This document shows positions 3,322 through 36,093 of a DNA stretch of 64,000 nt, piece after piece. Position 1 is the first letter of the stretch; each line of letters starts with the position of its first letter. The notes under the pieces were generated by a model. The model was given only the letters and a program-made list of their open reading frames with translations, searched no databases and had not been told where the DNA came from. The stretch covers positions 61,684-125,683 of the forward strand of contig DJPN01000021.1 of NCBI GenBank assembly GCA_002438565.1, read 5' to 3'. The position numbers and the translations under genes are program-made. Origin of the DNA: Alphaproteobacteria bacterium UBA6411. GTDB lineage: Bacteria > Pseudomonadota > Alphaproteobacteria > CAAGCB01 > CAG-977.

Positions 3322-3571
3322 AAGAAGTTCCTTTCACAAATATAGGTGATTAAAGCATACGGAAGCGTCAAAAGCCGACGTTTCATTTTGACGGTATGCT
3401 GAAAATCCCGTCAAATGCGGGAACGGCATTTCCCTGCCAGAAAACGCGGACGATGCCGTCTTCTTCCCGCAAATCCAAACCTTTCACTTTAGCGGCTTTA
3501 AGATTTTCCGCCGAAGAAAAAGCGTGATCGACCTTGCCGCTTTTCGGGAAAGTTTTTTCAAAATCCGGCGC

Positions 3572-4357: not shown

Positions 4358-4398
4358 GTTTCACCTCTCAATTTTTTTCAGAATAGCATTCCACTGCA

Positions 4399-4941: not shown

Positions 4942-5124
4942 GTTTCGCCTCTCAATTTTTTTTCAGGCTAACATCTTGGCGCGACAGAACATGTCGTTTG
5001 AAAAACGGCGTTCCGGTTTTTGAAAGACGACTGTTTTTGTCGCATCGTTATCCCATACTGTTGAAAAGAACGCTTTACGGAAAGCTTGTCGCCCGTTATC
5101 ATTTTTAACAGAAAGGAAAACCTC

Positions 5125-6450
5125 GTGTATTTATCCAAATCGAATTTTTTAGACGGCTTGTTTTGCCCGAAACGGTTATGGCTTTCAAAAAACCGCAAAG
5201 ACCTGATTCCCGATTTTGATGATGCGACTTTGGCGCGCTTTGACGCGGGCGAAAAGATCCACTTGTTGGCGCGCCGTTTCTTTGGCGAAGGCGCCGATTT
5301 GGAAGGCGAATTATGGGACATTGTGAACAACGCCCAAAAAACCGCCGAAGCCGCAAAGGAAAACAATCTTTTGTTTGAAGCGACGGCGTTGACGGAAGAC
5401 GGGTGTTTCTGCCGGATTGACGTTCTGGAAAAGAACGGTCGCGGGTGGGATATGATTGAAATCAAATCGTCTTCCAAAGTCAAAGATTACCACATCGACG
5501 ACTTGTCCTTTCAAGGCTATGTCTATGAACAGACCGGTTATAAAATCAAAAACTTTTACGTTTTGCATTTGAATTCCGACTATGTCCGCGGCAAAAGACT
5601 GAACGTTAAGAAGCTGTTTGAAAAGCGGGACGTCACACGGGAAGTCCGTGAACGACAAGACGAAAACATTGCGAAAATCCCGTCCTTTCTGAAATTGATT
5701 CATCAAAAGAAAGAATCCGTCGCCGAAACGGACAAACGTTGCGCGGATTGTCCTTTTGCCGGATATTGCGGCTATGAAGCTGAACCGAGCGACGAAAAAA
5801 GCCGGTGCGACAAAGCGGCGTTAAAGGAATGGCTGAACGAACTGGAATATCCGCTTTATTATCTGGATTACGAAACGGTTATGCTCCCCGTTCCCGAATT
5901 TGAAGGAACAAACCCGTATCAGCAGGTTCCGTTCCAGTTCTCTCTGCATATTCAACAGGAAAAAGGCGGAAAGGCCGAACATTCAGGCTACTTGCACAAA
6001 GACCGCTCCGATCCCCGCCGCGCGTTGGCGGAAGCTCTGGTCAAACAGTGCGGAAAGAAAGGTTCCGTCATCGTGTATAACGCCGCCTTTGAACGGACGA
6101 GAAACAAGGAATTGGCGGAGGCTTTTCCCGATTTGAAAAAGCAAATCCTCGCAATCAACGACCGCATGATCGATCAGCTTGCGCCTTTCAAAAAAAGAAT
6201 GCTGTATTCCAAAAAACAGGACGGCTCCGCGTCAATCAAACGCGTCTTGCCCGCCTTTACGAAATTGAGCTATGACAATCTCGGCATTAAAAACGGCGGG
6301 GAAGCAACCGATCTGTACGCGGCGTTCCTGAACGGCGTTTTGTCGGAAGCGGAAACGAAAGAGATGTTTAAAAACCTTGACATTTATTGCGGTCAGGACA
6401 CTTACGCGATGGTACTGTTAATGAACGTTTTGTACCAAAAAGCAAAATAA
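5125..6450 (+). CDS. DUF2779-like protein: Cas4/PD-(D/E)xK-type nuclease N-domain with an Fe-S cysteine cluster (CADCPFAGYC) and a C-terminal DEDD/RNaseH-like region (YYLDYETV)
   Basis: N-terminal YLSKSNF..G.FCPKRLWL motif; four-Cys cluster; the ORF opens at TTG 5086 but GTG 5125 has an aaaggaaaa RBS 7 nt upstream. Confidence 0.6.
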   Translation: MYLSKSNFLDGLFCPKRLWLSKNRKDLIPDFDDATLARFDAGEKIHLLARRFFGEGADLEGELWDIVNNAQKTAEAAKENNLLFEATALTEDGCFCRIDVLEKNGRGWDMIEIKSSSKVKDYHIDDLSFQGYVYEQTGYKIKNFYVLHLNSDYVRGKRLNVKKLFEKRDVTREVRERQDENIAKIPSFLKLIHQKKESVAETDKRCADCPFAGYCGYEAEPSDEKSRCDKAALKEWLNELEYPLYYLDYETVMLPVPEFEGTNPYQQVPFQFSLHIQQEKGGKAEHSGYLHKDRSDPRRALAEALVKQCGKKGSVIVYNAAFERTRNKELAEAFPDLKKQILAINDRMIDQLAPFKKRMLYSKKQDGSASIKRVLPAFTKLSYDNLGIKNGGEATDLYAAFLNGVLSEAETKEMFKNLDIYCGQDTYAMVLLMNVLYQKAK

Positions 6451-6532
6451 CCCCCAAATTGGTAAATCGATAATTTTGTATATGAAAACCAGTCGGTTGT
6501 CGGGTGGTTCCTTTTGCAAAAGGACATATACA

Positions 6533-6853
6533 ATGTTTGAAAAGAAATTTAACAACTACAGTTATGTCGGGTGCGGAGAATGCGGCATCACAGGGAAAAA
6601 GAAATCCGCTCAAACCCTTTATCGTAATCAGGATTTGAAAACGTATCTGACAAGATATCAATGGGCTTACAGGAACGGGTGTTTTCTCCCCCGTTTGCCT
6701 GACAATTTACGGGAAATCTTTTATGAACTCAAAGGCATGTTCAATGTCGCGGCGGCTTCTATTGATGAAATGCTTGAAGCCGGTCGTTGGTTAAGGCAAG
6801 CCGCTTCTGAAAGTGCAAAACGCAACAAGAGAGTTCAAGGAAAAAGGAGATAA
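6533..6853 (+). CDS. Hypothetical small protein (about 106 aa from MFEKKF)
   Basis: ORF with an aaagga RBS-like sequence upstream of the internal ATG; weak support. Confidence 0.25.
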   Translation: MFEKKFNNYSYVGCGECGITGKKKSAQTLYRNQDLKTYLTRYQWAYRNGCFLPRLPDNLREIFYELKGMFNVAAASIDEMLEAGRWLRQAASESAKRNKRVQGKRR

Positions 6854-6858
6854 CAGCC

Positions 6859-7371
6859 ATGACACAATATAAACAAATGGAAGACCTGTTCGGGTCTTAT
6901 TTTTTAAGCAAACGCGATACGGATATCGCTTTTCGGAACATAAACAAAAACGCGTTACTCAAAGTCGTCAAAGGATATAATGATTATCTGAGTGGAAAAC
7001 TTATGTTTCCTGAAGACACTTACTACGAGGGAATCGGGATAGAAAGCAATGATGAGCAGATTTTGTTTTCGATAAACAATTTGTACCGTTTGTGGGAGAA
7101 ATCACCCTACTGGCTGCAGAAGAAAGACGGGCAAACCTTATACGTCTTCGGCATTAGTTTTTGCGAAAAGCTGAACTCTTTTATTATCGGCGGATACCTT
7201 GAAAACAAAAAAGACGAAGGGCGATTTGTTGCAATCGCGTGGAGTCAACCTGTAAATACCATAGGACTTTTGGGGGACGCTATCATTGCCGATTATATTC
7301 CGGATGGCGTTCGCCTCAAAAAGCGGACTCCGCTTTATCGGCTGTTCACATTCGCTTGCATTGAAAAATAG
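6859..7371 (+). CDS. Hypothetical protein, 170 aa
   Basis: Strong aaggag RBS 9 nt upstream of the ATG; no recognised domain. Confidence 0.5.
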   Translation: MTQYKQMEDLFGSYFLSKRDTDIAFRNINKNALLKVVKGYNDYLSGKLMFPEDTYYEGIGIESNDEQILFSINNLYRLWEKSPYWLQKKDGQTLYVFGISFCEKLNSFIIGGYLENKKDEGRFVAIAWSQPVNTIGLLGDAIIADYIPDGVRLKKRTPLYRLFTFACIEK

Positions 7372-7552
7372 CAACCTATTGAAAACAGACGATAATTTGA
7401 CTTTTCGGAAAACTTTTGATATACTATACCTACCATCGAAAAATCGGTGGTAGGTATTTTTTTGGAGCAATCACGCACAATTTGGAACTGAAACAACCGC
7501 ATTCGCGCGGCAGGATACTTTTGTGCGTTTTTCAGTGGTGGGGGTTAAAAAT

Positions 7553-7906
7553 ATGACTGATAAAAACGAACGTCATTTTGACGAAAAAACACTAAAAATA
7601 CAGGCATTAAACGATCGGTTTCGACGAACGTTTAATGGGGGAAAGGTTTTGATGAGCTCCTGTGTGAGCGAACTCCCTTTACCGCAGCAAATAACACTGA
7701 TGAACCTCGTCCGAACTTTTGACGATTTCAGTGAAAACAACGATCCGTACGGCGAGCACGACTTTGGGAAAATCGAATTCAAGGGCACAGCTTACTTTTG
7801 GAAAATCGACTATTACGACATGGATTTTGAGTGTTTGTCTCCCGACCCAAGCGATGAAACCGTTACCAACCGCGTTTTAACAGTGATGAGGGCCGATGAG
7901 TATTAA
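7553..7906 (+). CDS. DUF3768-like protein (plasmid/ICE-associated family; DPYGEHDFG ... WKIDYYD signature)
   Basis: Motif match to DUF3768 recalled from plasmid annotations; start at the internal ATG with an upstream G-rich RBS. Confidence 0.45.
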   Translation: MTDKNERHFDEKTLKIQALNDRFRRTFNGGKVLMSSCVSELPLPQQITLMNLVRTFDDFSENNDPYGEHDFGKIEFKGTAYFWKIDYYDMDFECLSPDPSDETVTNRVLTVMRADEY

Positions 7907-8429
7907 GCCGTACAAACAAGGAACATTCGACCGACTTTGCAGCATTTACGCCCTGCTCAATGCGGTTCAATCTATGGGGTTTAAACTGACACACACGCAA
8001 GCGCAGAGCCTTATGGACGGTATTATTGAAAATATCCCTTCGAGCGATTTAACGGCGTTGATGCTGGGCGGAGCCGAACACAAAGACCTAATGAAATTGG
8101 CACGCCGCTTAAACAAAGCGCTTAACGCTCTGTTTGACAAGCAGGTTGAACTGACGCGTCCCTATAAACGCACTCGGCCGGATCTTTCGACGGCTTTGCG
8201 GGAAATGACCGAAGCGCGGTTAAACAATGCGGGGGTTATCGTGCGAATATCTTCCGACAGGTTTGACCACTATTCGGTTTTTAATCAAATTGAACGGGAA
8301 AAGGTGCGTTTTATCGACAGCGACCACATGCCGAGTTTGCCTTTGAACGAGTTATCGGTCGACGGGAAGAAAAAGTATGAGCTGCACCTTGAAAATATTT
8401 ACTGTCTGCAAATCAGAAAATCTGAATAA
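7896..8429 (+). CDS. Hypothetical protein, 177 aa, translationally coupled to the DUF3768 gene (11-nt overlap)
   Basis: ORF overlapping the upstream stop. Confidence 0.4.
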   Translation: MSIKPYKQGTFDRLCSIYALLNAVQSMGFKLTHTQAQSLMDGIIENIPSSDLTALMLGGAEHKDLMKLARRLNKALNALFDKQVELTRPYKRTRPDLSTALREMTEARLNNAGVIVRISSDRFDHYSVFNQIEREKVRFIDSDHMPSLPLNELSVDGKKKYELHLENIYCLQIRKSE

Positions 8430-8567
8430 ATGCACATTAATTCAGATTTTTGAGGTTTTTCGCAGAATCCTGCGGTTTTTTGAAAGGTCAAAAACAGGGG
8501 TAAAAAACGACACATTCATTAACGTCAAGTTTTTTTACTTTAATGAAGATTTTAGGGAGGCAAAGCC

Positions 8568-9164
8568 ATGAAACGAGGCAAGGCCAAGTTATTAAGTGAA
8601 ATCGATATCAAAAACTGTTTGCGGTACATTGATATGATGCCCAACGGAGAACGCAACCGCGCAATGTTTGAAATGATGCTGAACACGGCTCTGCGGATTC
8701 ACTCGATTCAAAAATTGACCATCGGTCAGGTCTATGACGACGATTTCAAACCGCGCGACAGCTTCCTGCTGCAACCGGAGCAAAACAAGGGGCATAAAAA
8801 GGCGTTACAGGTTTATATAAACGACGCGTTGAGCAAAGAGCTGAAACGATATGCAAAGCATCTGACAAGTTTGCACCCGTCGGTTATTCCTGATGATTAC
8901 CTGTTTCGGTCGAACAAGGGCGGCGGCTTCCTATCCAAGCAGCAAATCATATACACGTTCCGGCAAATATTTGACGGTGTGGGGCTTGATAAACAATATC
9001 GGTGCCACAGTCTTCGCGCGACCACTCTGACCAAGTTGATGGATGCCGGATACCCTTTGCCATTGATTAAAGAAATCTCCGGTCATTCATCGATTTCGAC
9101 ACTCTCGATCTATTACCGTGCTAACCCCAGAAATATCATGGAAGCTTTAAAGGTTATCGGGTAG
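8568..9164 (+). CDS. Small tyrosine recombinase (catalytic domain only, 198 aa)
   Basis: C-terminal phage-integrase catalytic motifs: ALRIHS (R), HSLRAT (HxxR), GHSSISTLSIYY (H...Y); gggagg RBS. Confidence 0.6.
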   Translation: MKRGKAKLLSEIDIKNCLRYIDMMPNGERNRAMFEMMLNTALRIHSIQKLTIGQVYDDDFKPRDSFLLQPEQNKGHKKALQVYINDALSKELKRYAKHLTSLHPSVIPDDYLFRSNKGGGFLSKQQIIYTFRQIFDGVGLDKQYRCHSLRATTLTKLMDAGYPLPLIKEISGHSSISTLSIYYRANPRNIMEALKVIG

Positions 9165-9341
9165 TCCGCAGTACACAGGAAGAAAACACGCGCATGAAAT
9201 TTCGTATATACCGGTAATGACAGACACTGTCATCGGGTAAAATGAACAAATCCTTAGTTGGAGGGTTAAAACGGTATGTCAGGGGCAAAGAAGCGGTAAA
9301 TGATGTCGAATTTTGATTGAACACAAGGGTATGGCAAAACC

Positions 9342-10010
9342 CTATACCGAACCCCTTTTTTTCTTTGTCTGTATCTTCAGAAGGCCCAGTTCCCGCATCA
9401 CCATTTTGACAATTCGTCGATTTGTTGAGCCTCCGTAAATATCGACTGACCTAGATGTCGTTTTTCCAATTAAAACAATGAAGTTTTCATCCGCATTTTT
9501 GAATTTTGTTATAGATCGCGCTTTTTTTCTGAAGCCGGGTATTTTTTGAATAGGTCGATCATTTTTTTCTGTCAAATACTGCTGGTGGAGTTTGGCAATG
9601 CCCTTTTCCGATAACTGCCGTGACAATTCGACGACAGTCCAGTTATGCTTGAGGGCGAAGGATAAAATTTTTGCATATTTTGTTTCGGTATTCTTTTTAA
9701 ACCTCCCTGAAAACAAGCCTCGTATGATGACCAAAGGCTTATTCATTTTCCCTCGCGATTTTCTCGCTACTGTATTGGGAAAAAGAGTGTCCAATTTCTT
9801 TTTGCACGCTCTTTGATATAGAATATATGACAGACAGATCGCTTCATATGAAGAAGCGTTTCGGGTATATTTTTCTAATTCTGTTTTCACTCCTCTTAGG
9901 TTTTTCAATGATTGGCATGCCAAAGTTATTTTCGCTAAATCCATAAGCCACATCTCCATTTTTATCCTAGGATAAAATATAAAAATCCAGCTGAAAAGAA
10001 ATTTTTGCAA
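9342..10010 (-). CDS. Hypothetical protein, 222 aa, basic C-terminus
   Basis: ORF convergent with the recombinase gene; no motif recognised. Confidence 0.35.
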   Translation of the reverse strand: MQKFLFSWIFIFYPRIKMEMWLMDLAKITLACQSLKNLRGVKTELEKYTRNASSYEAICLSYILYQRACKKKLDTLFPNTVARKSRGKMNKPLVIIRGLFSGRFKKNTETKYAKILSFALKHNWTVVELSRQLSEKGIAKLHQQYLTEKNDRPIQKIPGFRKKARSITKFKNADENFIVLIGKTTSRSVDIYGGSTNRRIVKMVMRELGLLKIQTKKKRGSV

Positions 10011-10137
10011 ATCGCTCGCTCGCGGTTGTCAAAAATATCCCAGGATATAATTTTCCAAAAAACCGAAAAAACAAAAATTGTAAATAACGCCACAGTTGCA
10101 ATGGCTGTGATGTTAAATTTTTGATGAAAGAAAAAAC

Positions 10138-10719
10138 ATGACTAAAAAAAGCAATAACAGGTTGGAACAAACCTGTATCAAATCCATCAACGAAATCTGC
10201 GAATGCAGAAAAACATGCCGCCAGGCCGCATTGAAATTTGTGTGCCAGGTTACGGTGCTCGCCGTGAAACGCAAGGCATCGACTCCTGCTTCAATCGATA
10301 AGTTGCTAAAGGAGCTTTTTACTAAAGCAAGAAGAAAACTGTCGTCGGATTTAAAGACGAGATATCGTCAGGCGGTTTTGTATCTTTTTTTAAAAAAGGG
10401 GCTTGGAACCGAGCAAGCGCTGTGGGAACTATGCCACAAGCTGAGCTTGACTTCTTGTCGGAAATTGTCAGACGCTTACACAAGCCAAACGAAAAAAGTT
10501 CCGGCTGCGACATCGGGCAAGTCTGCAAAGGCAAAACATACAAGCTCTGCCAGCAAGTCCTCTGCAAGTTTGAAAAAGGTGCCGCAAACGGCTGAAAAAT
10601 CGATGGCGGACAGCTTTAAACAGGTGAAAAGGCTTATACAACAGGTTTCCAAGACCAAAAAGAAGGGCTCGTTCGTTCTGAAAAAGATGAATCTCAAAAT
10701 CACCGTTACGCCTGTGTAA
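10138..10719 (+). CDS. Hypothetical lysine/serine-rich protein, 193 aa
   Basis: ORF immediately upstream of the Rep/RecQ-like gene; low complexity. Confidence 0.3.
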   Translation: MTKKSNNRLEQTCIKSINEICECRKTCRQAALKFVCQVTVLAVKRKASTPASIDKLLKELFTKARRKLSSDLKTRYRQAVLYLFLKKGLGTEQALWELCHKLSLTSCRKLSDAYTSQTKKVPAATSGKSAKAKHTSSASKSSASLKKVPQTAEKSMADSFKQVKRLIQQVSKTKKKGSFVLKKMNLKITVTPV

Positions 10720-10780
10720 ACAGGACTGCTCCGAAGGGCGGAACTCTCGCCCTTTGGAGCTTATCAAAGAGGAACTTGGG

Positions 10781-12784
10781 ATGAAAAAATATAATACCGA
10801 AACAGAGCTGAACCAGCGTATTGCAATGTTAGATTACGAAATAAATCGGACAGAAGCCGGCAGCAACCGAAAAACCGCATTACTGAAACTAACGAAAAAA
10901 CTCGCAAAAGGAGAAGAAACCTTTGCCAATCCGATATATGCCGAACAGTTTCAACGGGAATGTCTGAATAAAGCCTGGCCTTTGTTCAATCGTGCGTTAA
11001 AAGAAGGCATTCCTGTTTGTTTTTCAACAGTCAACATTTGTCGGGGGCAGGGAAAAAACAAAGCGACGCATTGGCTGTCTTGTGATGATATCGAATCTTT
11101 CAACGTGCGACAGGCAGTCAATACGCTGCGAAAGCAACTTGGGTCTTTGCCAGAATGTTGCGGTTTCATTACTGTGGAAATCAAATGGGACGAGCGTTTT
11201 GAACGTTTCCTGCCGCACGTCCATATTTTGTCTTTTGGCGCGACGGCGACAAGTTTGAGAAAAATGTTCAAAACATTATATCCGACCCAAGAAACAAAAC
11301 GAATATGCCGTTCGTTTTACGATAAAAAGAACGAACGGAACTACATCGATCCGCTAGCTTTACAGTATCCGACACCGATTAAATTGGCACTTGTCGAGGA
11401 TGTCGTTTCGAAAAAAAGGGATTTTCACCGAGTCTCGACTTACATGACCAAATTGAAGAGCTATTGTTCCAAATATTGGATTCGACATTTAAAACCGATT
11501 CAATACAAGCACAAGGCCTGTCGCCCGGCTCCGAAAGTGCATAACACGCATTTGTTATTTTTGGATAGCTTGCCGTCCACAGCCGTTTTTGCGCCATTCA
11601 ATGCGCAATTGATGCAGTCAATGACGACGGCCATCGGTCAGGCTGACGGATTTGACGACAGCCCCTTGACTGAAAAAAACGCTTTGCATTTATTGGGGTG
11701 TTCCTTTTTTCGTTCGGAACAAAAGGCTGTTATCGCCCGTATATTGAAATATAACCGAACTTTTTTTCGGTTGCGAACCGGATTTGGGAAAAGTTTATGT
11801 TTCCAAATGGCGGCTCTTTGCCAAAGCGGCGTGTGTGTCGTAATCGAACCTTTGATCGCCGTAATGAACGATCAAGTCGAGAAACTGAATACGGTTTTAC
11901 CGCATAGTGCCGTAACAATCAACGGCAACACCGGCGATAAAAAGGCGATATATAAGCAGATCAAGCAGGGAAAATACAAGTTTCTATACGTTACGCCCGA
12001 GACGTTTTGTCAGGATGCCTTTCAAGACGTTCTTCGGCAAACAGAAACATGCCAAATCGTTGTCGACGAAGCTCATTGCATTGCTTTTTATGGAGAGAAT
12101 GACTTTCGCCCGAAATACCTGAAAATCGGAGAAACCATTCAAAAGATGAAGTCGTCCGCAAAAGTCGTAGCTCTTACAGGAAGTGCTGACGCAAGAACAA
12201 TAAAAGTGATCCGGAAATCTTTGAAAATTTCTGAAAAAGCCTGCTTTGTCGGGAACATTGATCGTCCGGAAATAACCTATTTGGTAAAAAAGCGAAAAGG
12301 AAACGGACGAAAACAACTGTGTCGCATGGTAGAAAGTTGTGCAGGAACCGTAATTGTTTTTTGCACTTTGCGTGATACGGCAATGGCAGTTTCGGCAATG
12401 CTTCGCAAAAAAGGGATTGCAACAGAGTTGTTTTTGGGAAAAGGAAAAAACAATGCCGACATTATCGCAAAAAGTAAAAGAGAACGGTTGGTAATTGTTG
12501 CAACTTCGGCTTTGTGCATGGGCGTTGATATTCCCCACGTCGAGTTGGTTATTCACTTTGAGCCGCCTTTGTCGTTAGCCGAATACTCTCAAGGTTCTGG
12601 TCGCGGGGCACGAGAACAGGGCTCCTGCGCAAAAGCCGTTATGATGTACACGGAAAACGATTTAACATATATCCGCAAATGTTTTTGCAAGACAAAATCC
12701 GACAACAGATCGTTTGATTCGGTGTGCCGCTATATTGAAAAAACGGGGAATCACAGGCGGATGCTGTCGGACGCTTTAAATTAA
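10781..12784 (+). CDS. RecQ-family SF2 helicase core fused to a ~300-aa N-terminal domain carrying an HUH-like motif (PHVHILSF) and a Y..K/Y motif (STYMTKLKSYCSKY); putative replication/mobilisation protein
   Basis: RecQ motifs TGFGKSLCFQ (motif I), VVDEAHCIAFYGENDFRPKY (DEAH), VATSALCMGVDIPHVELVIHFEPP...YSQGSGRGAR (motifs V-VI); agagga RBS before ATG 10781. Confidence 0.65.
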   Translation: MKKYNTETELNQRIAMLDYEINRTEAGSNRKTALLKLTKKLAKGEETFANPIYAEQFQRECLNKAWPLFNRALKEGIPVCFSTVNICRGQGKNKATHWLSCDDIESFNVRQAVNTLRKQLGSLPECCGFITVEIKWDERFERFLPHVHILSFGATATSLRKMFKTLYPTQETKRICRSFYDKKNERNYIDPLALQYPTPIKLALVEDVVSKKRDFHRVSTYMTKLKSYCSKYWIRHLKPIQYKHKACRPAPKVHNTHLLFLDSLPSTAVFAPFNAQLMQSMTTAIGQADGFDDSPLTEKNALHLLGCSFFRSEQKAVIARILKYNRTFFRLRTGFGKSLCFQMAALCQSGVCVVIEPLIAVMNDQVEKLNTVLPHSAVTINGNTGDKKAIYKQIKQGKYKFLYVTPETFCQDAFQDVLRQTETCQIVVDEAHCIAFYGENDFRPKYLKIGETIQKMKSSAKVVALTGSADARTIKVIRKSLKISEKACFVGNIDRPEITYLVKKRKGNGRKQLCRMVESCAGTVIVFCTLRDTAMAVSAMLRKKGIATELFLGKGKNNADIIAKSKRERLVIVATSALCMGVDIPHVELVIHFEPPLSLAEYSQGSGRGAREQGSCAKAVMMYTENDLTYIRKCFCKTKSDNRSFDSVCRYIEKTGNHRRMLSDALN

Positions 12785-12849
12785 ACGGCCGGAACTAAAC
12801 CGAATTACGGAGAGGCTTTGAAAAAAAAGCCTCCCTTCCCGTTTAAGGA

Positions 12850-13415
12850 TTATTCCCTCTTAATCCCGAAACGTTTTGCAACAGCTTTAAAATCGTCATC
12901 GGTGATGTTTGCACCTTTGCCGTTGACCAATGCGGTGTGTTCGCCGTTAATCCCCTCGGACGGCGTTAAATCATAGGCGGGCGACATTTTCCATTCGCCA
13001 TCTTCATTCATCACAAAAGAAAAATTCTTGCTGTGGTCGTCTTTGTTGCCGATGCGCACGTTAAACATCATCAAGCGGAACATTTTTTCGACTTCGCGAA
13101 CGTCACGGGTCAGAGCCTGCGTCAGCCGCAAAAGCCCTCAGTCCGAAAACTTTGGCAAAATACTCGTGCGTCGGCGGCGGACCGAAGTTCCGCAAGTTCG
13201 GCAGAATGCGCGTCGTCTATAAAATCGCCGACTTGGACGAATGGATTGAGCAGCGACTGTCCAATACTTTTGCGGCGACAAATATCCTTTGTAACGACGC
13301 GTCAAGTGTGCGAAATAAGGAATAGCAAGTTTGCGATGTATTTTTTCCCGGAAAACAATTCCCAAAGTTTTCTTTTGATTGCTCAAAATCAACCTGAAAC
13401 AATTCCTTGTACCCA
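12850..13415 (-). pseudogene. HipA-like kinase remnant; the intact C-terminal 93 aa at 12850-13131 carry NKDDHSKNFSF and SPAYDLTPS motifs
   Basis: HipA_C-type motifs in a 93-aa ORF lacking the N-terminal two-thirds; upstream sequence is broken into short out-of-frame ORFs. Confidence 0.5.
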
Positions 13416-14309
13416 TCAACCGTCGTTTTTATCCCAATCGACAGGAAAGCCCATTTGAAGCGGCTTGACGATATCCGAAAATTCATTGATTGTTTCTTTC
13501 AGGCGTAGCGTCCAGGTCGGCGTCTGAACAATTCTGTTTAACAAGATATCGATGATTAAAGCAAAACAGTAAAACCGTTCCGCTGTGTCCAGTTCCGGAA
13601 AAGCGTTCGCCTTTTTGATTTTGAACGGATATTTTCTGTTCCAGATACGGGAATGATGCGCGCATGAATTACGCAAAACGGACAAGGCGTGAAACCACGA
13701 TTGCAAAATGGATTCCTCTATGCCGAATTTTTCTGCCACAGCTTTTCTGTAAGGACGTTTCAGATTTTCGTAAATTCGGGAAACGCATCCGAACGGCAGT
13801 ATTTCAAAAACAATCCACGCCGGAGGGATTTCGGGGGTGGAATACGTTTGATAATAATGCTCCAGGCTCGGAGCGGTTTTCTGCTGTTCAATCTGTTTTC
13901 GGATTTCTTCAAGCATGGACGCTTGCGTGTTGCGTTTATTCTTATCGTGAAAACAATCCGGATTTTCCAGCCAGAACGCACCGCATTTTTCAGACAGACA
14001 ATTTACGATCACGGTTCTGAACGCGACTTCAATCCGCTCCAAAGCGTCCATAGATAAAAGACGCAACCGGCGATCAAACGAATAAAGCCGCAAAATCTTT
14101 TCAAACGAAACGGGCGTTTTGAAAGAGTGGCGTTCTTCTTGGAACGGAAACATATAAACGGATAAGCGGTAATACGATATGAAATCCAAGTAATGTTCCG
14201 CCCGTTCCGGATTGTCAATAATCATTCCCCGTTCGGACAGCAGACGGATTATTTCTTTGTTGGATAAAGGCGTTTTGTCAAACGGAATGCCGAACGGATT
14301 GTTTTTCAT
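13416..14309 (-). CDS. Abi_2 family (AbiD/AbiF-like) abortive infection protein
   Basis: N-terminal signature ...LSERGMIIDNPERAEHYLDFISYYRLSVY... typical of Abi_2. Confidence 0.65.
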   Translation of the reverse strand: MKNNPFGIPFDKTPLSNKEIIRLLSERGMIIDNPERAEHYLDFISYYRLSVYMFPFQEERHSFKTPVSFEKILRLYSFDRRLRLLSMDALERIEVAFRTVIVNCLSEKCGAFWLENPDCFHDKNKRNTQASMLEEIRKQIEQQKTAPSLEHYYQTYSTPEIPPAWIVFEILPFGCVSRIYENLKRPYRKAVAEKFGIEESILQSWFHALSVLRNSCAHHSRIWNRKYPFKIKKANAFPELDTAERFYCFALIIDILLNRIVQTPTWTLRLKETINEFSDIVKPLQMGFPVDWDKNDG

Positions 14310-14601
14310 AGATTTTTTCCAAAAAAAGACTCGGGGTGGTGCGCATTGTTAAGAGGCGTCCCGAGTGTTGTTACAGATTATATAACCGATTCCGATGAAA
14401 AAATCAACTGCTTTTTTAGGGAAAAATTAGTAGGTTCTTTATGCTACATAATTTACTCCCTTTTAGTTTTTTTTAAAATAAGTCATGAAAGCTTCAATGT
14501 TTTGTTTTGTAGAAAAAAGAAAAAATAAATCAAATTTTGTTGTGTTTGATTCTATTTAATAAAATTTATATGGAAATCGTTTTCAGAATAATTATCTTTT
14601 T

Positions 14602-15366
14602 CTAAACACTTAAAAAGTCTTTGTATTGTTTTTCTAGGTAATCCCGATTTGGAATAAACCGATTTGGCAATCTGATTTTTGAATTGTTCCGTTCAAGGAA
14701 AAGACGTGAAAATTCAGGATCATTTGTTTTTTCTTTCTCAAATTTTTTAGAAACAACAAATTTGAAATCCGGAGAAATTGAGAAAATACCAGCATCATAC
14801 GCTTTATGATAGAGGGTGCTCATACATAAGCCGTTATGCGGATTTGTTCTTAAATCAACTTCATTAGCCCACCCTAAAATATGTGCCGCTTCTAGTAATG
14901 ACGTAACGGATAAATTTGAAATACAGCATTTGTTTTCATAAGAAGAAAGAACCATTTGTCTGAAAAAAGACTGATTTACGCGTCGCTTGGTTATTGTTTC
15001 GCGGTCTTCTCCTTTTGGGAAATCAATTCTTTCTATATCTTCAATATGGTTTCGTTCTTTGTATAAAGTCAGAAGCTTTTCTGATTTAAAAGCTAATTCA
15101 TCCCAATTTTTTGAAAATTCTTCCCAAATTTGTTGATCTAATACACTTGTGTTAGTTAATCCTGTTACACCTCTTGCTTTTAGTTCTGGATCAAACGCTC
15201 CAAAATTTCCAAGTTTCATAGCTACGGCTGATGGTGTTCTTCCAATCAATTTTGCTACTTCAATAACTTTAGGATTTGTTTTTACACATTGGCTAAAAGG
15301 AATTTTGCAATAGAGATTGAAGGCTAATATTTCTTCGTCTCTTGTCCATTTTTTTCTTTCATTCAT
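14602..15366 (-). CDS. HNH endonuclease family protein (HNH_2-like), 254 aa; AT-rich gene
   Basis: C-terminal ...LEAAHILGWANEVDLRTNPHNGLCMSTLYHKAYDAGIF... HNH motif; markedly lower GC than its neighbours, with an AT-rich flanking spacer. Confidence 0.55.
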   Translation of the reverse strand: MNERKKWTRDEEILAFNLYCKIPFSQCVKTNPKVIEVAKLIGRTPSAVAMKLGNFGAFDPELKARGVTGLTNTSVLDQQIWEEFSKNWDELAFKSEKLLTLYKERNHIEDIERIDFPKGEDRETITKRRVNQSFFRQMVLSSYENKCCISNLSVTSLLEAAHILGWANEVDLRTNPHNGLCMSTLYHKAYDAGIFSISPDFKFVVSKKFEKEKTNDPEFSRLFLERNNSKIRLPNRFIPNRDYLEKQYKDFLSV

Positions 15367-15616
15367 CTGGCGGCACCCTTTTAGAGAAACATCTCTAAAA
15401 CTCTATCAATGTTTTACAATTTTGCAAGTTTGATGTCGCCTAAGAATTTAAAATATTCTGCGGCTTTGAGAGACCGCGAACGGATATTCATTCTGTTTGC
15501 GATCCCGTTTATATGTTCCTGTTCGGTTGCTGTAATACACCGCTACCAAGTTATGAATCTCCGTTCGGAGATTGGCAAACCCATTGCAAATCCCGCCATG
15601 TTTTTTCTTCGAGAGA

Positions 15617-15856
15617 TTACTTTTTCATCAGCGTTGTGTTCAATATGCGGACGGTTTGATAGGTGTTGATACCGACCTTTCGGACTTGTTCTTCAAGTTT
15701 TGTCAGCAAGAGGATTTCGTCATAATGCGGAATTTTTATCTGATCCTCCCTGCAAAAATGGACAACCGGATCAGGCGGGACAAGGCATTGTTTTTCGGCG
15801 ATAAGAGTGTCCCAGATTTCTTGTTCTATTCTGAACGACTTGACAATACGCGCCAT
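15617..15856 (-). CDS. Possible ribbon-helix-helix (CopG/antitoxin-like) small protein
   Basis: N-terminus MARIVKSFRIEQEIWDTL resembles RHH beta-strand/helix patterns; it conflicts with an overlapping plus-strand ORF, so the call is weak. Confidence 0.25.
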   Translation of the reverse strand: MARIVKSFRIEQEIWDTLIAEKQCLVPPDPVVHFCREDQIKIPHYDEILLLTKLEEQVRKVGINTYQTVRILNTTLMKK

Positions 15857-16080
15857 AAATGCCTCGCAGAGTTAAGCGTTCAAATGTGTGTGACAAAAGT
15901 ATTATAGCCGAACGAAAATTTGAACACAACGCCCGCTTTTCGTCATACGAAAAGGCTATCCTGCCCAAAGACCACCCTCAATAAAATCAATCACTTGCGG
16001 CGGGGCGGAAAAGGCGTTTTTTTCGTTTTGTCGGACAAACGGGGTATCCCGCACCGACAAAACACCCCGTTTGCTTCTTG

Positions 16081-16401
16081 TCATATTTCCATCAATTCCG
16101 CGATTTTTTCACTGACAATGTTTGCGGCTTGAATGACAGGTTTCAGCGACAAATGCGTGTAGCGGTGCGTGATCGAATTGATGCTGTGTCCCAACATTCC
16201 CGCAATAATGTTATCCGAATATCCCATTTCCGCCGCCATCGTCGCGAAACTGTGCCGCAACGCGTGAGGGCAAAATTCCGCTTGTCCGACCGCCGCTTTG
16301 ATATGCTTTTCAAAGAACGCGACCAACGCCATCTTTTGCGGTTTGCCGAAGACGTATTCGTCCGCCGCCGGCGGCTGTTTTTCCTCTTTCAGCTTTTCCA
16401 T
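16081..16401 (-). pseudogene. C-terminal fragment of a second tyrosine recombinase (HALRHSFATMAAEMG ... GHSINSITHRYTH)
   Basis: Catalytic HxxR and H...Y motifs present, but the ORF is only 106 aa. Confidence 0.5.
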
Positions 16402-16622
16402 AAACCGCTTTGCCCCGGAGCCGAAAGGTCTGTCTTGCGCTCCGGTTTCTGATCGGAGACAAACAAGTTTTCAAAATCGCCAAGCCGTCCCAACGCGTTC
16501 GCCAAACGCAATAACGAATCAAAAGCGATCAGTCCTGTTCTTTCAAACCAGCGCAAAGACGCAAGCGTAACATCGGAACGGTCGCAAAGTCCTTGCTGAG
16601 ACAGGTTTTGCTCCAACCGCAA
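16389..16622 (-). CDS. XRE-type helix-turn-helix protein (possibly N-terminally truncated)
   Basis: LEQNLSQQGLCDRSDVTLASLRWFERTG resembles the XRE HTH; the start context is unclear. Confidence 0.35.
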   Translation of the reverse strand: MRLEQNLSQQGLCDRSDVTLASLRWFERTGLIAFDSLLRLANALGRLGDFENLFVSDQKPERKTDLSAPGQSGLWKS

Positions 16623-16844
16623 CGCCGAACGCCGGTCACAATCTTGACCAGATCATTTTGCCCCGCCCATTTCGATAAATCCTGAAGGTATTTAGGTCTG
16701 TCAATAAGCTGTATCGAAGCGTTTCCCATTGAAGAATCCTCCATTTATATAAGCACTTGACACTTTGTACTTTTTGTAAAATCAATGGTTTCGTAAAACG
16801 CAGTTTACAAAATATGATTTTTATCGTTTTTGAAAAGCGGTCCT

Positions 16845-18584
16845 TTATTCCCGATACAAGTGGCTTAAATCCAACCCGTCGTATTTCAGCTTGCAATTCA
16901 CCGTTTCGCGCAGGACTTTAAGGCTGACTTCTCCATAATGTTCGGAAAGGCTTGAGCCGCGCTCCCATCCTTGAATACGCGTTACAAACTCCGGATTGGC
17001 TTCATTATTCCGAAACTCGGTACGCACCGTATGACGGAAACTGTGGAAGACGTGACCTTCTTCAAACTTATCCGCTTTGGCTTTGATCCCTTTGTTCAAG
17101 CTGTCTAAAAAACGACCGAACCATTTGGAAATATCATCGGAATAATGTCCTCGTGCATTGACGCGCAGTTCGGGAAACAGCCTCTTTTCTTTGCGCATTT
17201 CTTTCACATAGTTCAAAAAACCGATCTTTATCAATTCATTGTGTAGGGGAACAAGGCGAATCCCCGCCTTTGTTTTGACATGCTTTTCTCCTTCATCGTT
17301 AATGCTGATGACCCAAACATCGTCAATTTGTCGGACATCGTTCGGGCTCAGTTGGCATAATTCGTTACATCTCGCGCCTGTGAAAATCCCCAACAACGGA
17401 ATCCAAAAACGCGCATGTCTCGGATGTGCGTTGCCTTTGATTGCATATCCACGTTTGTCGTCCCGACACCCTGTGTAAATTGGAGCGTTGAAGATATAAC
17501 TCAGTTGCCTTGCCGAAAAAGACAAACGTTTTATTTCGTCTTTTTCATTGGTTGCACACGGAACATCAACCGTATCATACGGATTCTCGATCAGATATTT
17601 ATACTTAACCGCCCAATCGAAAAAGCGTTTGATGACAACGAAGTAATCACCCAATGTTTTTGATCCGATGCATTCCGTCGGGTGTTTCTTTCCCCGTTCT
17701 ATATCTTTCAATACGTTGTATGTATCAGGTTTGCTGCGCGCGCTGTTTTTCGTGATGAACGGTAACAGTTCGACGGCATGTTGCAAGTCTTCCGTCGTTA
17801 CGGAACGCACCGTTTTATCTTTGCCCAAGATCTCTTGTAAAATATGGATTTTCTTGCTGACACGGTTTTTGGAATCGGCGGATTTGTTCTTGCGGGAATT
17901 CTGGTTGTTGTACACCTCCGCCAATGCGTCCAATGTCATATCGGGTTTTAACGGCGTTCTTAACAACATCGGAGAAGAAACGATATTCTCCCCGGTCAGT
18001 CCCGAAGGGACGCCCACAGTCAGACGTTGAGGAGGAATATCTGCTAATCCGATAGCGCAATGATGCATAAAATCGCAAAACTGCATTTCAGCGCGCATAA
18101 ATGCTTCTTCTAAGACTCGTTTGGAAGATTCTGTGGGAAACGGATAATTATTCCGCAGTAAAAAGGACTGACACTTCCGTTCAATAATCACGTAATCCGC
18201 CACGGCATATTTTGAACGCAACTGCGCAAACCGTTCCATATACGGTTCCGGTAACAACGGTTTTCCTGCGCAATTTTCCCGTTCTTCCGCAATTCGGGTC
18301 AGCAAATATTCGTATGCGAACGTTTCCGCTTGACTGCGGTCATAATCCAGCGTGTGTTCGTCCTTGTCGTATCCCATTTTTTTTGCCGTTTTTCCTCTGA
18401 AGTCCAACCGTTCGTACAAGTCCGACATTACCATGATATAGCGTCTTTGCGCAATTTGCTTATTCTTGGTTCTGAGGGACACCCACAGTTGTCTTTTGCC
18501 GACCAGACTACGGAAAGCAGTCGGTACATTCAATACCGCATAATACGATGTCCCACGATTATAAAGGCTCATCGTTACCTGCAA
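16845..18584 (-). CDS. int: Tyrosine integrase (phage/island integrase) adjacent to the tRNA-Gln 3' end
   Basis: N-terminal arm-type DNA-binding-like region; C-terminal HSFRHTVRT ... SEHYGE catalytic motifs; located ~100 bp from the tRNA 3' end, the classic island arrangement. Confidence 0.7.
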   Translation of the reverse strand: MQVTMSLYNRGTSYYAVLNVPTAFRSLVGKRQLWVSLRTKNKQIAQRRYIMVMSDLYERLDFRGKTAKKMGYDKDEHTLDYDRSQAETFAYEYLLTRIAEERENCAGKPLLPEPYMERFAQLRSKYAVADYVIIERKCQSFLLRNNYPFPTESSKRVLEEAFMRAEMQFCDFMHHCAIGLADIPPQRLTVGVPSGLTGENIVSSPMLLRTPLKPDMTLDALAEVYNNQNSRKNKSADSKNRVSKKIHILQEILGKDKTVRSVTTEDLQHAVELLPFITKNSARSKPDTYNVLKDIERGKKHPTECIGSKTLGDYFVVIKRFFDWAVKYKYLIENPYDTVDVPCATNEKDEIKRLSFSARQLSYIFNAPIYTGCRDDKRGYAIKGNAHPRHARFWIPLLGIFTGARCNELCQLSPNDVRQIDDVWVISINDEGEKHVKTKAGIRLVPLHNELIKIGFLNYVKEMRKEKRLFPELRVNARGHYSDDISKWFGRFLDSLNKGIKAKADKFEEGHVFHSFRHTVRTEFRNNEANPEFVTRIQGWERGSSLSEHYGEVSLKVLRETVNCKLKYDGLDLSHLYRE

Positions 18585-18685: not shown

Positions 18686-18760
18686 TGGCTGGGGCGGCTG
18701 GACTCGAACCAGCGAATGACGGAGTCAAAGTCCGTTGCCTTACCGCTTGGCTACGCCCCA
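18686..18760 (-). tRNA. tRNA-Gln (anticodon UUG)
   Basis: Manual fold: 5' TGGGGCG acceptor, GTAGCCAAGCGGTAAGGC D-arm, anticodon loop CTTTGAC, TTCGAGTCC T-arm, 3' CGCCCCA-G-CCA; 75 nt. Confidence 0.85.
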
Positions 18761-35986: not shown

Positions 35987-36043
35987 TATCATCATCCTTT
36001 CGTTGATATGCAACTTATCGGATGATGATAAGACGTTTTGTCG

Positions 36044-36065: not shown

Positions 36066-36093
36066 TTGTACGCCTTTCGGCTATATTGGCGCA

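Follow-up and report, generated by a model that had tools for sequence, protein, structure and literature searches.

As far as we are aware, a HUH initiator works either with an SF1 helicase recruited from the host or with a motor fused to it, which is of the SF3 type in viral Reps and of the SF1B type in relaxases and Helitrons. The HUH-SF3 Reps of CRESS-DNA viruses, parvoviruses (AAV Rep68/78) and pCRESS plasmids carry an N-terminal Rep-class HUH domain and a C-terminal 3'-5' helicase in one polypeptide. The Rep_1 (PF01446) initiators of pC194/pUB110-type plasmids recruit host PcrA. In the integrative element ICEBs1, NicK, which is related to rolling-circle initiators, nicks the element after excision and a 3'-5' helicase unwinds it, for both maintenance and transfer (PMC5357655). 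What is the function of a protein that joins a HUH domain to a RecQ-type helicase in a bacterial island? The protein studied here, Rep-RecQ, is encoded in a genomic island of an uncultured gut alphaproteobacterium, within the window (the whole 64-kb stretch of DNA that was analysed; Table 1). We propose, with a probability of about 0.6, that Rep-RecQ is a self-contained rolling-circle initiator-helicase of a small tRNA-integrating island. With it, the island can probably replicate by rolling circle and need not borrow a host helicase.

The Rep-RecQ reading frame is preceded by an AGAGGA ribosome-binding site 8 nt 5' of its ATG. This start agrees with the gene calls for metagenomes, in which 10 contigs encode an identical protein; samples that contain it include ERZ808299 and SRR5325861. 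No source searched gives the protein a name. An earlier note on this DNA had read the gene as a HUH domain fused to RecQ in a replication or mobilisation protein of an island, a reading that is supported overall. All the strings that it quoted are located in the protein (GFITVEIKW at residues 128-136, PHVHILSF with HVH at 146-148, STYMTKLKSY at 219-228, TGFGKS at 333-338, DEAH at 429-432 and HCIAFYGENDFRPKY at 432-446), and the DUF3768 gene and small tyrosine recombinase that it named as neighbours are present.

Table 1. Features of the Rep-RecQ island in window coordinates.
Feature	Position	Strand	Remarks
DUF3768 gene	7523-7906	+	Backbone
g177	7896-8429	+	Backbone
Small Xer-like tyrosine recombinase	8568-9164	+	198 aa, catalytic domain alone; Phage_integrase 4e-23; XerA/C/D-like
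g200, divergent gene	9342-9944	-	Co-occurs with TATCCNNGGATA palindromes
Operator-like region	9963-10047		Two exact TATCCNNGGATA palindromes, 9963-9974 and 10036-10047
g193	10138-10719	+	Same operon, 5' of Rep-RecQ; each locus has a 200-220 aa positional counterpart directly abutting the start of Rep-RecQ
Stable hairpin	10728-10760	+	Between g193 and Rep-RecQ start; 13-bp stem, 7-nt loop
Rep-RecQ fusion gene	10781-12784	+	ORF and translation; ATG 10781, stop 12782-12784, 667 aa
N-terminal three-helix region	10781-11005	+	Residues 1-75; model helices 6-23, 29-43, 51-74
TFANPIYAEQFQ in helical region	10919-10954	+	Aligned with Rep_1 CPxCxWRR zinc-ribbon and CGSLACPVCNRQRQ of P0014
HUH (Rep-class) nuclease domain	11006-11599	+	Residues ~76-273
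Motif I, CFSTVNI	11018-11038	+	Residues 80-86; model strand 79-85; aligned to Rep_1 FLTLT (hhalign)
Beta-hairpin GFITVEIKWDERFERFLPHVHILSF	11162-11236	+	Invariant E133 (11177-11179), R139, P145; model strands 127-137, 142-152
Motif II, H146-V-H148	11216-11224	+	On model strand 142-152
Motif III, STY221MTK224LKSY228	11435-11464	+	Aligned to Rep_1 KYxxK
Minimal RecQ SF2 core	11687-12715	+	Residues ~303-645; TIGR00614, PDB RecQ, DEAD and Helicase_C domains
RecQ motif 0	11690-11722	+	
Walker A, TGFGKS	11777-11794	+	
DEAH	12065-12076	+	
RecQ aromatic loop	12074-12118	+	
Motif VI, QGSGRGAR	12590-12613	+	
HipA_C fragment	12850-13131	-	Variable cargo
AbiD/Abi_2	13416-14309	-	Variable cargo
HNH protein	14602-15366	-	Variable cargo
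Island integrase (DUF6538 + Phage_integrase)	16845-18584	-	Adjoins 3' end of tRNA-Gln
tRNA-Gln(TTG)	18686-18760	-	GC ~0.43 changes to 0.50-0.53 on its right

Motif III of the HUH superfamily is a catalytic tyrosine in a Yx2-3K arrangement on an alpha-helix C-terminal to the HUH motif (PMC10962738). The N-domain of Rep-RecQ contains all three superfamily motifs in the Rep-class order, with HUH before Tyr. Its usable model, obtained with AlphaFold from a 10-sequence alignment, displays the HUH fold, an antiparallel sheet with the Tyr-bearing helix packed on it. Y221, predicted to be the catalytic tyrosine, lies at the end of helix 212-222 of this model, and the nuclease domains of HUH-SF3 Reps are among the structural matches of the N-domain. 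An H-x-H tripeptide by itself means little. H146-V-H148 is invariant in two alignments (14/14 and 10/10 sequences); K224 is invariant and Y228 near-invariant in homologue alignments, as are T83 and N85 of motif I (at least 90% conserved). It is the invariance of H146, H148, E133, Y221 and K224 among homologues of just 25-36% identity that goes beyond chance. Fold and invariant residues support the N-domain as a Rep-class HUH nuclease, whose cleavage chemistry would be that of the superfamily, a metal-dependent cut in ssDNA by way of a covalent 5'-phosphotyrosine intermediate. The three-motif layout described in the earlier note stands for motifs II (HVH) and III (Y221/K224) but not for GFITVEIKW, which is a beta-strand that bears E133 and leads into the HUH strand; CFSTVNI is motif I. 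For residues 1-300, AlphaFold with a single sequence as input gave a model of no use (pLDDT 37.5). An HMM search of the N-domain profile against PDB sequences returned a spurious SAM-domain match and nothing else, and in plasmids and phages tBLASTn detected nothing that matches the N-domain.

Profile-profile comparison relates the N-domain to Rep_1 over the catalytic region. The N-domain family aligns with Rep_1 in hhalign at 88.7% (E 2.6e-6, 198 columns), with controls at 20 or below; the value is 77.7% without the standalone homologue P0014, and the fused members alone reach a probability of 61.5%. Structure prediction and comparison with Rep families, proposed as a check in the earlier note, favour its HUH reading. 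The two families share the same order of a uuTuu strand, an E-x-T/K-y-n...pHxHuu hairpin and a KYxxK helix, and hairpin GFITVEIKWDERFERFLPHVHILSF aligns with g-R-tEvTyn..pHxHvl of Rep_1. However, the Rep-RecQ family does not reach the PF01446 gathering threshold of 33.2 bits: its best member, P0014, scores 20.3 bits (E 4e-4), and the window protein has no match to Rep Pfam models even at E<=1. The five plasmid Reps taken for comparison have an N-terminal CPxCxWRR zinc-ribbon, which is intact solely in the standalone homologues P0014 (as CGSLACPVCNRQRQ) and Sal290; the fused proteins lack its cysteines, and the window protein, with TFANPIYAEQFQ in its place, has none at all. Nor is the acidic residue 4 positions before the Rep_1 catalytic Tyr conserved in the Rep-RecQ family. 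A comparison of the N-domain with the single phiX174 gpA sequence by hhalign was negative, as was that of Rep_1 with gpA. Unlike Rep_1 proteins, which reside on small plasmids of Firmicutes, Rep-RecQ carries its own fused helicase and resides in a chromosomal integrative island of Alphaproteobacteria. SIRV1 ORF119 (PDB 2x3g) is the HUH Rep of a rudivirus, a dsDNA virus of archaea. This dimeric nuclease of 119 aa stands alone and differs in having neither a helicase nor the N-terminal helical region.

The C-terminal half of Rep-RecQ is a genuine RecQ SF2 motor, as the earlier note had claimed. It belongs to the RecQ subfamily TIGR00614 (240.5 bits against a curated cutoff of 219.8), with motifs 0, I, II and VI present, and residues 285-636 match E. 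coli RecQ structures in the PDB at 1e-49. The helicase motifs are conserved in all fused homologues in the alignment. On the bacterial RecQ equivalog TIGR01389 the protein scores 250.7 bits against a cutoff of 640, matching profile positions 8-347 of 591, and falls outside that group. Because the RecQ match stops at about RecQ position 350, the Zn-binding, RQC and HRDC regions are absent, in agreement with the earlier claim for the latter two; the protein ends about 30 residues past helicase lobe 2. Bacterial RecQ, in contrast, has the Zn-binding cysteines, the RQC winged helix and HRDC. Canonical RecQ enzymes need the Zn-binding and winged-helix modules for efficient unwinding, so the Rep-RecQ core may be just a translocase. 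The motor also separates Rep-RecQ from other HUH-helicase fusions. HUH-SF3 Reps use a hexameric AAA+ helicase and belong to small viruses or plasmids, whereas Rep-RecQ has the two RecA-like lobes of SF2, a RecQ type that is normally monomeric, and belongs to an integrase-bearing bacterial island. In TraI/TrwC and in Helitrons the helicase is of the SF1B type and moves 5'-3' along the nicked strand; the HUH domain of relaxases is a circular permutation in which Tyr precedes HUH, and Helitrons have two tyrosines. With HUH before Tyr, an SF2 helicase and no conjugation genes in 11 loci, Rep-RecQ does not belong to the TraI/TrwC group.

The genes around Rep-RecQ describe an integrative element. 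The tRNA-Gln(TTG) gene is the probable integration target and right island boundary, and homologues of the adjoining integrase occur in 9 of 11 related loci. No copy of the tRNA-Gln 3' end as an att repeat lies within the window, so the left boundary could not be placed there and falls outside it. Between Rep-RecQ and the integrase, a variable cargo zone spans 12850-15366; in one related locus (L007) AbiD and HNH are missing, and the integrase lies about 1.5 kb 3' of Rep-RecQ with zero cargo genes between. The DUF3768 gene and g177 accompany Rep-RecQ even in loci that are about 30% identical. The small Xer-like recombinase is a candidate multimer resolvase, and a serine resolvase replaces it in L011, L014 and L015. 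The operator-like region is invariant in six loci. Its palindromes are the sole exact copies in the 64 kb, the homologous spot in L004-L009 also has copies, and the second palindrome overlaps a TATAAT, with an invariant TTGTAAATA box just downstream. The divergent gene g200 is a candidate regulator. Searches for families and structures gave no matches for g200, g193, g177 and g170, apart from a weak sub-threshold Pepco match for g193. Megablast returned no match to the island in E. coli genomes or plasmids. No circular form of the island was detected, and the contig covering window positions 4917-15845 (L002), considered as an excised circle, has no terminal overlap and is not circular.

A search for a nearby origin, also proposed in the earlier note, found neither an origin nor a nick site; a hairpin lies 5' of the gene. 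The hairpin folds as DNA at -15 kcal/mol (z -4.4), a value that none of 200 shuffled sequences equalled, and may act as an attenuator or as an origin element. L007, L008, L009/L010, L011 and L015 each have a hairpin at this spot whose stem is unrelated in sequence, and none is present in L012-L014 (three clades). The nick consensus of pC194 and phiX is CTTGATA. This sequence and the nick consensus sequences of other rolling-circle replicons are no more frequent than expected by chance and show no positional conservation, and a TTGATA beside the upstream hairpin is conserved among close relatives but not beyond. The k-mers shared by all clades are A-rich low-complexity sequence and nothing else. 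The conserved non-coding blocks at 16441-16844 were rejected as origin evidence, given that they overlap gene debris (an integrase fragment and an ATPase fragment).

Rolling-circle replication driven by Rep-RecQ would proceed as follows. Judging from the gene content, the DUF6538-type tyrosine integrase would cut the island out of tRNA-Gln to give a double-stranded circle, and the g193/Rep-RecQ operon would be freed from a repressor bound at the TATCC(N2)GGATA palindromes. The Rep_1-like HUH domain would bind a divalent metal via H146 and H148, with E133 of the adjacent strand probably joining, and, as in the HUH superfamily, would nick one strand at a putative origin and leave Y221 covalently joined to the 5' phosphate. 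The tethered RecQ motor, by the established polarity of such helicases, would translocate 3'-to-5' on the intact template strand and open the duplex for a host polymerase, which would follow and extend the 3'-OH. The host Rep, PcrA and UvrD helicases recruited by standalone HUH initiators and the SF3 helicases fused to viral Reps have the same polarity. Because nuclease and motor form one polypeptide, we propose that the 5' end moves with the fork, as in the 'looped rolling circle' of phiX174. After one round, the regenerated origin would be cut and the displaced strand ligated to a circle, with Y228 or a second subunit as candidates for the second nucleophile, and multimers would be resolved by the small resolvase, of the tyrosine type here and of the serine type in distant relatives. 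The excised island would in this way be maintained without a host helicase, be amplified in copy number or produce single strands; a helper conjugation system could also use the nick for transfer. Against this scheme stand the negative results on the origin and on a circular form, the absence of the hairpin from three clades, the window protein's lack of a Pfam Rep match, the lower hhalign probability of the fused members and the pared-down RecQ core; the lack of conservation at the acidic position before the Tyr makes the termination chemistry less certain. This scheme, proposed here from genes, resembles the post-excision rolling circle of ICEBs1 with NicK, host PcrA and HelP. However, NicK is Rep_trans-like (MobT) and not HUH, the ICEBs1 helicase is a separate host SF1 enzyme, and ICEBs1 encodes a full conjugation apparatus, which is not seen in the Rep-RecQ island.

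Rep-RecQ could instead be a mobilisation relaxase-helicase, in which HUH nicks an oriT and RecQ unwinds the strand exported via the pore of a co-resident conjugative element. The island would then be an integrative mobilisable element, with replication secondary or absent. Rep_1 initiators of small plasmids double as relaxases for ICEBs1 mobilisation, and RCR-type proteins are the relaxases of many such elements (PMC5357655). The island also has integrase(s) but no recognisable partner for replication, for instance a primase, and a 79-aa ORF at 15617-15856 shows a weak sub-threshold MobC_2 match (E 0.007). That ORF, however, sits in gene debris outside the conserved backbone, and no coupling protein, T4SS or canonical MOB accessory gene was found in the window island or ten related loci. 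The HUH-before-Tyr order is unlike the permuted MOBF/MOBQ relaxases, and the resolvases beside Rep-RecQ suit a replicon better. We regard mobilisation as rather unlikely to be the principal role, although it is compatible with, and not exclusive of, rolling-circle replication.

Nuclease-helicase fusions are common in defence systems, and AbiD, HNH and a HipA fragment lie in the same island; Rep-RecQ might thus be cargo, an anti-phage or anti-plasmid effector whose DpdF/PsyrT-type motor loads on foreign DNA that HUH nicks. The helicase half scores 263 bits on the PADLOC DpdF model and 204 bits on PsyrT, and with every RecQ motif it reaches 240-263 bits on RecQ and DpdF models. Yet the PADLOC matches span the generic RecQ core alone and are equalled on housekeeping RecQ (250 bits, TIGR01389), the N-domain, which those systems lack, matches no defence model, and no neighbour matches the Dpd (DpdA-K) or PsyrA partners that mark them. 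Moreover, Rep-RecQ is the constant partner of the integrase whereas defence genes vary, and its relatives are replication initiators, making a defence role improbable. Some HUH-fold domains are known to bind origins without nicking. A catalytically inert, HUH-derived DNA-binding module, there to bring a RecQ-type helicase of repair or recombination to the island's DNA, would fit the degenerated zinc-ribbon and the lack of an above-threshold Rep match in the window protein, but the invariance of both His, Tyr, Lys and Glu, the candidate third metal ligand, at 25-36% identity is unexpected for an inert scaffold, and we consider such a module very improbable. Least credible of all is a Helitron- or IS91-like rolling-circle transposase, in which the HUH-helicase itself would move a DNA segment by peel-and-paste: a tyrosine integrase beside a tRNA gene already explains the mobility of the element, the helicase is a 3'-5' SF2 enzyme, unlike the 5'-3' Pif1-like SF1B type, the distance of 7 between the tyrosines is not the YxxxY spacing of two-tyrosine transposases, and the window holds one copy with no terminal hairpin signals seen.

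We therefore return to the rolling-circle initiator-helicase. The earlier note had called a HUH-RecQ fusion unusual, and no description of a HUH fusion to RecQ or another SF2 helicase was found in literature searches, in which many subscription papers, such as the 2013 HUH review, were beyond reach. It is about an even question whether Rep-RecQ is the first SF2 (RecQ)-powered HUH rolling-circle initiator, built from a Rep_1-type nuclease minus the zinc-ribbon and a RecQ core minus the Zn-binding, RQC and HRDC regions, and defines an unrecognised class of small integrative replicons that are switched by an operator, have their own resolvase, need no host helicase and bring defence genes from one gut alphaproteobacterium to another. 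If so, RecQ-type SF2 would be a third helicase superfamily paired with HUH, and the coupling of nickase and motor would have been invented yet again. As a naturally occurring 'minimal RecQ' that receives its substrate from a covalently attached nuclease, the protein could aid the study of RecQ core loading and unwinding without accessory domains. HUH domains are in use as sequence-specific covalent DNA tags, and a new, very divergent family that comes with its own motor might find use as a reagent. Because the N-domain has no name in any database searched, Rep-RecQ genes are probably annotated as plain helicases. Recognition of the N-domain helps to find, in uncultured gut Alphaproteobacteria, a family of defence islands that integrate and probably also replicate.

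The Rep-RecQ protein joins an N-terminal domain (N-domain; residues 1–300) to a C-terminal helicase core in one uninterrupted reading frame. An AGAGGA Shine-Dalgarno sequence lies 8 nt 5' of its ATG, independent gene callers chose the same start codon on ten metagenome contigs encoding an identical protein, and all peptide strings quoted in the earlier note occur in the translation. The C-terminal half is, by its sequence, an SF2 helicase core of the RecQ family and contains the Pfam domains DEAD (residues 313–473) and Helicase_C (residues 512–611). It scores 240.5 bits against TIGR00614 (recQ_fam; cutoff 219.8) and far below the cutoff of the RecQ equivalog model (250.7 versus 640 bits), and residues 285–636 match RecQ crystal structures from E. 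coli and other sources (E = 1e-49). The match to the full-length RecQ profile ends at position ~347 of 591 and the protein stops ~30 residues further; it therefore lacks the cluster of Zn-binding cysteines, the winged helix of RQC and the HRDC domain, which bears out the earlier claim of a RecQ motor without RQC and HRDC. A RecQ core without its Zn and winged-helix modules may unwind DNA poorly.

What is the function of the N-domain? Residues 1–300 matched nothing in Pfam, NCBIfam, PHROGs, PADLOC or any PDB sequence, and the window protein reaches the threshold of no Rep model. Family members are rare: four close relatives came from a word-indexed search of 5.8 billion proteins, and only twelve from an exhaustive HMMER search of 1.84 billion cluster representatives. 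Six representatives of 667–711 residues (P0005, P0007–P0010 and P0015) carry the same RecQ core, P0011 (583 residues) differs at its C-terminus, and the remainder are fragments or standalone N-domains. In the alignment, the N-domains of P0011 and P0010 look the same to about residue 310, beyond which the C-terminus of P0011 is not RecQ but shows a CxxC...H...N...CxxC pattern that resembles HNH and has no Pfam match; P0011 arose either by a natural swap of domains or as a chimera of the assembly.

E133, R139, P145, H146, H148, Y221 and K224 are invariant among N-domain homologues only 25–36% identical to the window protein, including both histidines of the HVH tripeptide on which the earlier note had relied, and T83, N85, K135, D137, F143 and Y228 are at least 90% conserved. 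The resulting pattern, F-x-T-x-N followed by G-f-I-t-x-E-v-K-y-D-x-R-f-x-x-F-L-P-H-x-H-I-l and t-Y-x-x-K-x-k-t-Y, corresponds at the sequence level to the layout of motifs I (uuTuu strand), II (HUH strand) and III (Tyr helix) defined for Rep-class HUH nucleases (PMC10962738). The earlier note erred once, in taking GFITVEIKW for motif I; this segment is the E133 strand, and the real motif I is CFSTVNI.

Profile and plasmid comparisons point to the Rep_1 family. Sub-threshold Pfam matches were obtained between P0014, a standalone homologue, and Rep_1 (PF01446; E = 4e-4, residues 75–179) and between REP_ORF2-G2P (PF23343) and both P0005, the closest full-length relative in the representative search with 59% N-domain identity (E = 6e-3, residues 102–224, from HUH through Tyr), and P0007 (E = 0.012). 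A tBLASTn search of 72,556 plasmids with P0014 gave 125 weak matches; most of the matches listed are 'protein rep' genes on small rolling-circle plasmids of Staphylococcus and Streptococcus, and Bacillus plasmids also appear in the genus count. When A2, a ten-sequence N-domain alignment, was compared by hhalign with a Rep_1 alignment of five annotated rep genes (pUB110, pBT469-2, pPTDrAP2d, pSTHERMO and pE95_16_1), the probability was 88.7% (E = 2.6e-6, score 50.1, 198 columns), decreasing to 77.7% without P0014 and to 61.5% for RecQ-fused members alone with the register unchanged, all values being below 95%. The controls (reversed template, 20 column-shuffled templates and the RecQ half as query) scored 11–20 with probabilities of at most 0.7%. 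The register pairs f-T-l-N with FLTLT, E-v-K-y-D...P-H-x-H-i-l with E-v-T-y-n...p-H-x-H-v-l, and t-Y-x-x-K with K-Y-x-x-K. The acidic residue ahead of the Rep_1 catalytic tyrosine is not conserved in the N-domain family. The Rep_1 zinc-ribbon (CPxCxWRR), which P0014 retains intact as CGSLACPVCNRQRQ, aligns with residues 47–58, TFANPIYAEQFQ, so the fused proteins resemble Rep_1-type initiators whose zinc-ribbon has been lost. On the Salmonella plasmid CP101356 (L022, 3834–6774), a standalone 290-residue 'hypothetical protein' related to the N-domain (hhalign 93.2%), with an intact zinc-ribbon, sits in an integrase/AlpA/Rep-like arrangement, a context suggesting that small integrative elements of enterobacteria contain HUH Reps that have escaped annotation.

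AlphaFold2 produced a confident model from A2 (pLDDT 85.5, pTM 0.84), in which motif I occupies strand 79–85, Y221 ends helix 212–222, and E133 and H146/H148 lie on opposite arms of a beta-hairpin (strands 127–137 and 142–152). From the strand register, E133 would face H146 across the hairpin as a third metal ligand. Further down the list of structure matches are geminivirus, nanovirus, circovirus, vientovirus and parvovirus Reps and a Helitron transposase, mixed among generic ferredoxin-like proteins at much lower identity. Foldseek gave four matches with E < 1e-3 among viral models and no significant match in the PDB alone; the few viral matches that carry names stand lower in the list than these four and are microvirus and Vibrio filamentous-phage replication initiators. 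Together, the Pfam, plasmid, hhalign and structure tests support the prediction of an active, Rep_1-related Rep-class HUH nuclease, and the three-motif layout that the earlier note had read in the N-terminus stands.

Coordinates of Rep-RecQ and associated features in the window
Feature	Position	Strand	Remarks
Hairpin	10728–10760		13-bp stem; between g193 and the Rep-RecQ start codon; −15 kcal/mol, z −4.4
Rep-RecQ ORF	ATG 10781, stop 12782–12784	+	uninterrupted, 667 aa
Island integrase	16845–18584	−	DUF6538 + Phage_integrase, tyrosine type; terminates the low-GC stretch
tRNA-Gln	18686–18760	−	3' end immediately adjoins the integrase

Rep-RecQ lies within a low-GC stretch (about 0.37–0.46, versus 0.50–0.57 over much of the remaining window). 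The 64-kb window contains no repeat of the tRNA-Gln end, and the left end of the island was not found in it; the left boundary therefore lies outside the window or is very short. Ten Rep-RecQ loci were recovered from 185,579 species genomes, mostly in metagenome-assembled genomes (MAGs) labelled Alphaproteobacteria, several from human-gut assemblies; the exceptions are one Lactobacillaceae MAG and one 'uncultured proteobacterium'. In tBLASTn comparisons of the island proteins with related loci, the N-domain is collinear with the RecQ half in each of the ten loci with sufficient sequence, at identities as low as 30%, and 9 of 11 loci have the same type of integrase. Closer relatives share a module of a small tyrosine recombinase, g200 (opposite strand), g193, Rep-RecQ and a HipA_C fragment, and the most distant loci retain DUF3768 and/or its neighbour g177. 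An ORF of 193–221 residues abuts the Rep-RecQ start at every locus. A serine resolvase (182–184 residues; Resolvase + HTH_7) adjoins Rep-RecQ in L011, L014 and L015, where the window has a 198-residue Xer-like tyrosine recombinase; through this non-orthologous swap a small site-specific recombinase is thus retained, as expected for multimer resolution on a replicon. AbiD and the HNH gene are cargo, because they are missing from L007, in which the integrase gene follows Rep-RecQ by ~1.5 kb with nothing cargo-like between.

A DUF2779 protein at 5125–6450 (+), with an N-terminal PD-(D/E)XK/Cas4-like nuclease region (UU173 family), is probably cargo, because among the related loci it occurs only in L001 and L002, identical in sequence to the window. 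An ORF run in the left part of the island (250–4962, −; 174–426 aa, no family matches) contains paralogous repeats D1–D3 (72–147 nt, ~80% identity) and may represent a duplicated gene pair. Two fragments separate the cargo from the intact integrase, one of an integrase (16081–16401, −; the homologous L004 gene is called PF00589) and one from the N-terminus of an ATPase (16529–16744, −). The DNA of this interval is 84–94% identical to loci with much more divergent integrases, suggesting debris of successive tRNA-Gln insertions and mosaic exchange. In L004 (3035–5032) Rep-RecQ is decayed, its product being called from residue ~162 (P0003, 504 aa) beside a 106-residue integrase fragment, an apparent case of in-place erosion of the island. 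A block of very low GC (0.33–0.37) at 31183–36115 (−) encodes a 754-residue protein with a C-terminal adenosine-deaminase domain, a 210-residue protein and a 685-residue KAP/AAA NTPase, and resembles a RADAR-type anti-phage system.

The divergent intergenic region between g200 and g193, which shares an operon with Rep-RecQ, contains two exact palindromes, TATCCNNGGATA (three in L009), one overlapping TATAAT. These palindromes, like a TTGTAAATA box that is invariant, are conserved in each of the six loci possessing g200. The window has no further exact palindrome copy, and other loci have it at the homologous position only; the region looks like a repressor-operator switch of the Rep-RecQ operon. 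The search for an inverted-repeat or nick-site origin that the earlier note had proposed yielded the hairpin upstream of Rep-RecQ but not the nick site. Five other lineages have a hairpin at the same place with unrelated stems and three have none; the role of the hairpin may be that of an attenuator or of an origin element. Upstream hairpins of L009 and L010 have identical stems and an inverted 8-nt loop (AATTTAGC versus GCTAAATT). Beside the integrase fragment, two interleaved perfect 10-nt inverted repeats (16025–16073; A-B-A'-B', GTTTTGTCGG/CAAACGGGGT...CCGACAAAAC/ACCCCGTTTG) could form alternative hairpins. Known nick-site consensus sequences occurred at chance frequency only, a cross-clade k-mer search for an origin found nothing shared, and neither the origin nor the circular form of the island was found. 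Highly conserved DNA at 16.4–16.8 kb was rejected as an origin, since it overlaps pseudogene debris.

We propose, as the best-supported model, that Rep-RecQ is a self-contained rolling-circle initiator-helicase of the excised island. Following excision by the integrase and derepression of the operon, the HUH domain would nick the origin and join the 5' phosphate to Y221; the RecQ motor would then move 3'-to-5' along the intact template strand with host polymerase behind, the regenerated origin may serve as the termination site, and the small recombinase would resolve multimers. RecQ enzymes have 3'–5' polarity. Standalone HUH initiators recruit 3'–5' helicases: phiX174 uses Rep, whereas pC194- and pT181-type plasmids use PcrA. 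Viral Reps are fused to SF3 helicases, which share this polarity; TraI and Helitrons instead have SF1B helicases that move 5'–3' on the nicked strand. Because the polarity of RecQ is that of SF3 and opposite to that of SF1B, Rep-RecQ, placed by our model on the template strand, resembles the viral Rep solution, an HUH domain fused to a 3'–5' helicase, with RecQ instead of SF3 as the motor.

The earlier note had left replication and mobilisation side by side. Our analysis shows the fold, catalytic residues that do not vary, helicase motifs that are intact, and a fusion and backbone context that are conserved, whereas nicking, polarity, coupling and replication are inferred. Rep-RecQ has no conjugation-related neighbours: genes for relaxase accessories, coupling proteins, T4SS components or phage structural proteins are absent from all loci, and a dedicated mobilisation relaxase is unlikely. 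Rep_1 proteins also serve as mobilisation relaxases (PMC5357655), so mobilisation would be a compatible second role, not an exclusive one. That Rep-RecQ is a defence effector is very unlikely: its PADLOC matches, DpdF and PsyrT, are to the generic RecQ core only, and it is constant beside the integrase whereas the defence-type genes (AbiD, HNH, a Type I/IIG R-M fusion) vary between loci. The invariance of the catalytic residues makes an inert DNA-binding domain highly improbable, and a Helitron/IS91-like transposase is barely credible against the integrase, the tRNA site and the helicase class. ICEBs1 provides a precedent for post-excision rolling-circle replication of an integrated element by an RCR-type nickase and a 3'–5' helicase (PMC5357655).

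For three clusters of the Rep-RecQ family, no member is named in any source, and the N-domain is without a Pfam family. Relaxases and Helitrons provide examples of HUH domains joined to SF1B helicases. HUH nucleases have been described as partners of host SF1 helicases or as fusions with SF3 helicases (PMC10962738), and no report of an HUH-RecQ or HUH-SF2 fusion was found in the searchable literature, in which coverage of subscription journals is incomplete. We class Rep-RecQ with the HUH nuclease-helicase fusion initiators; its carrier is an apparently undescribed family of small integrative elements of uncultured gut Alphaproteobacteria.
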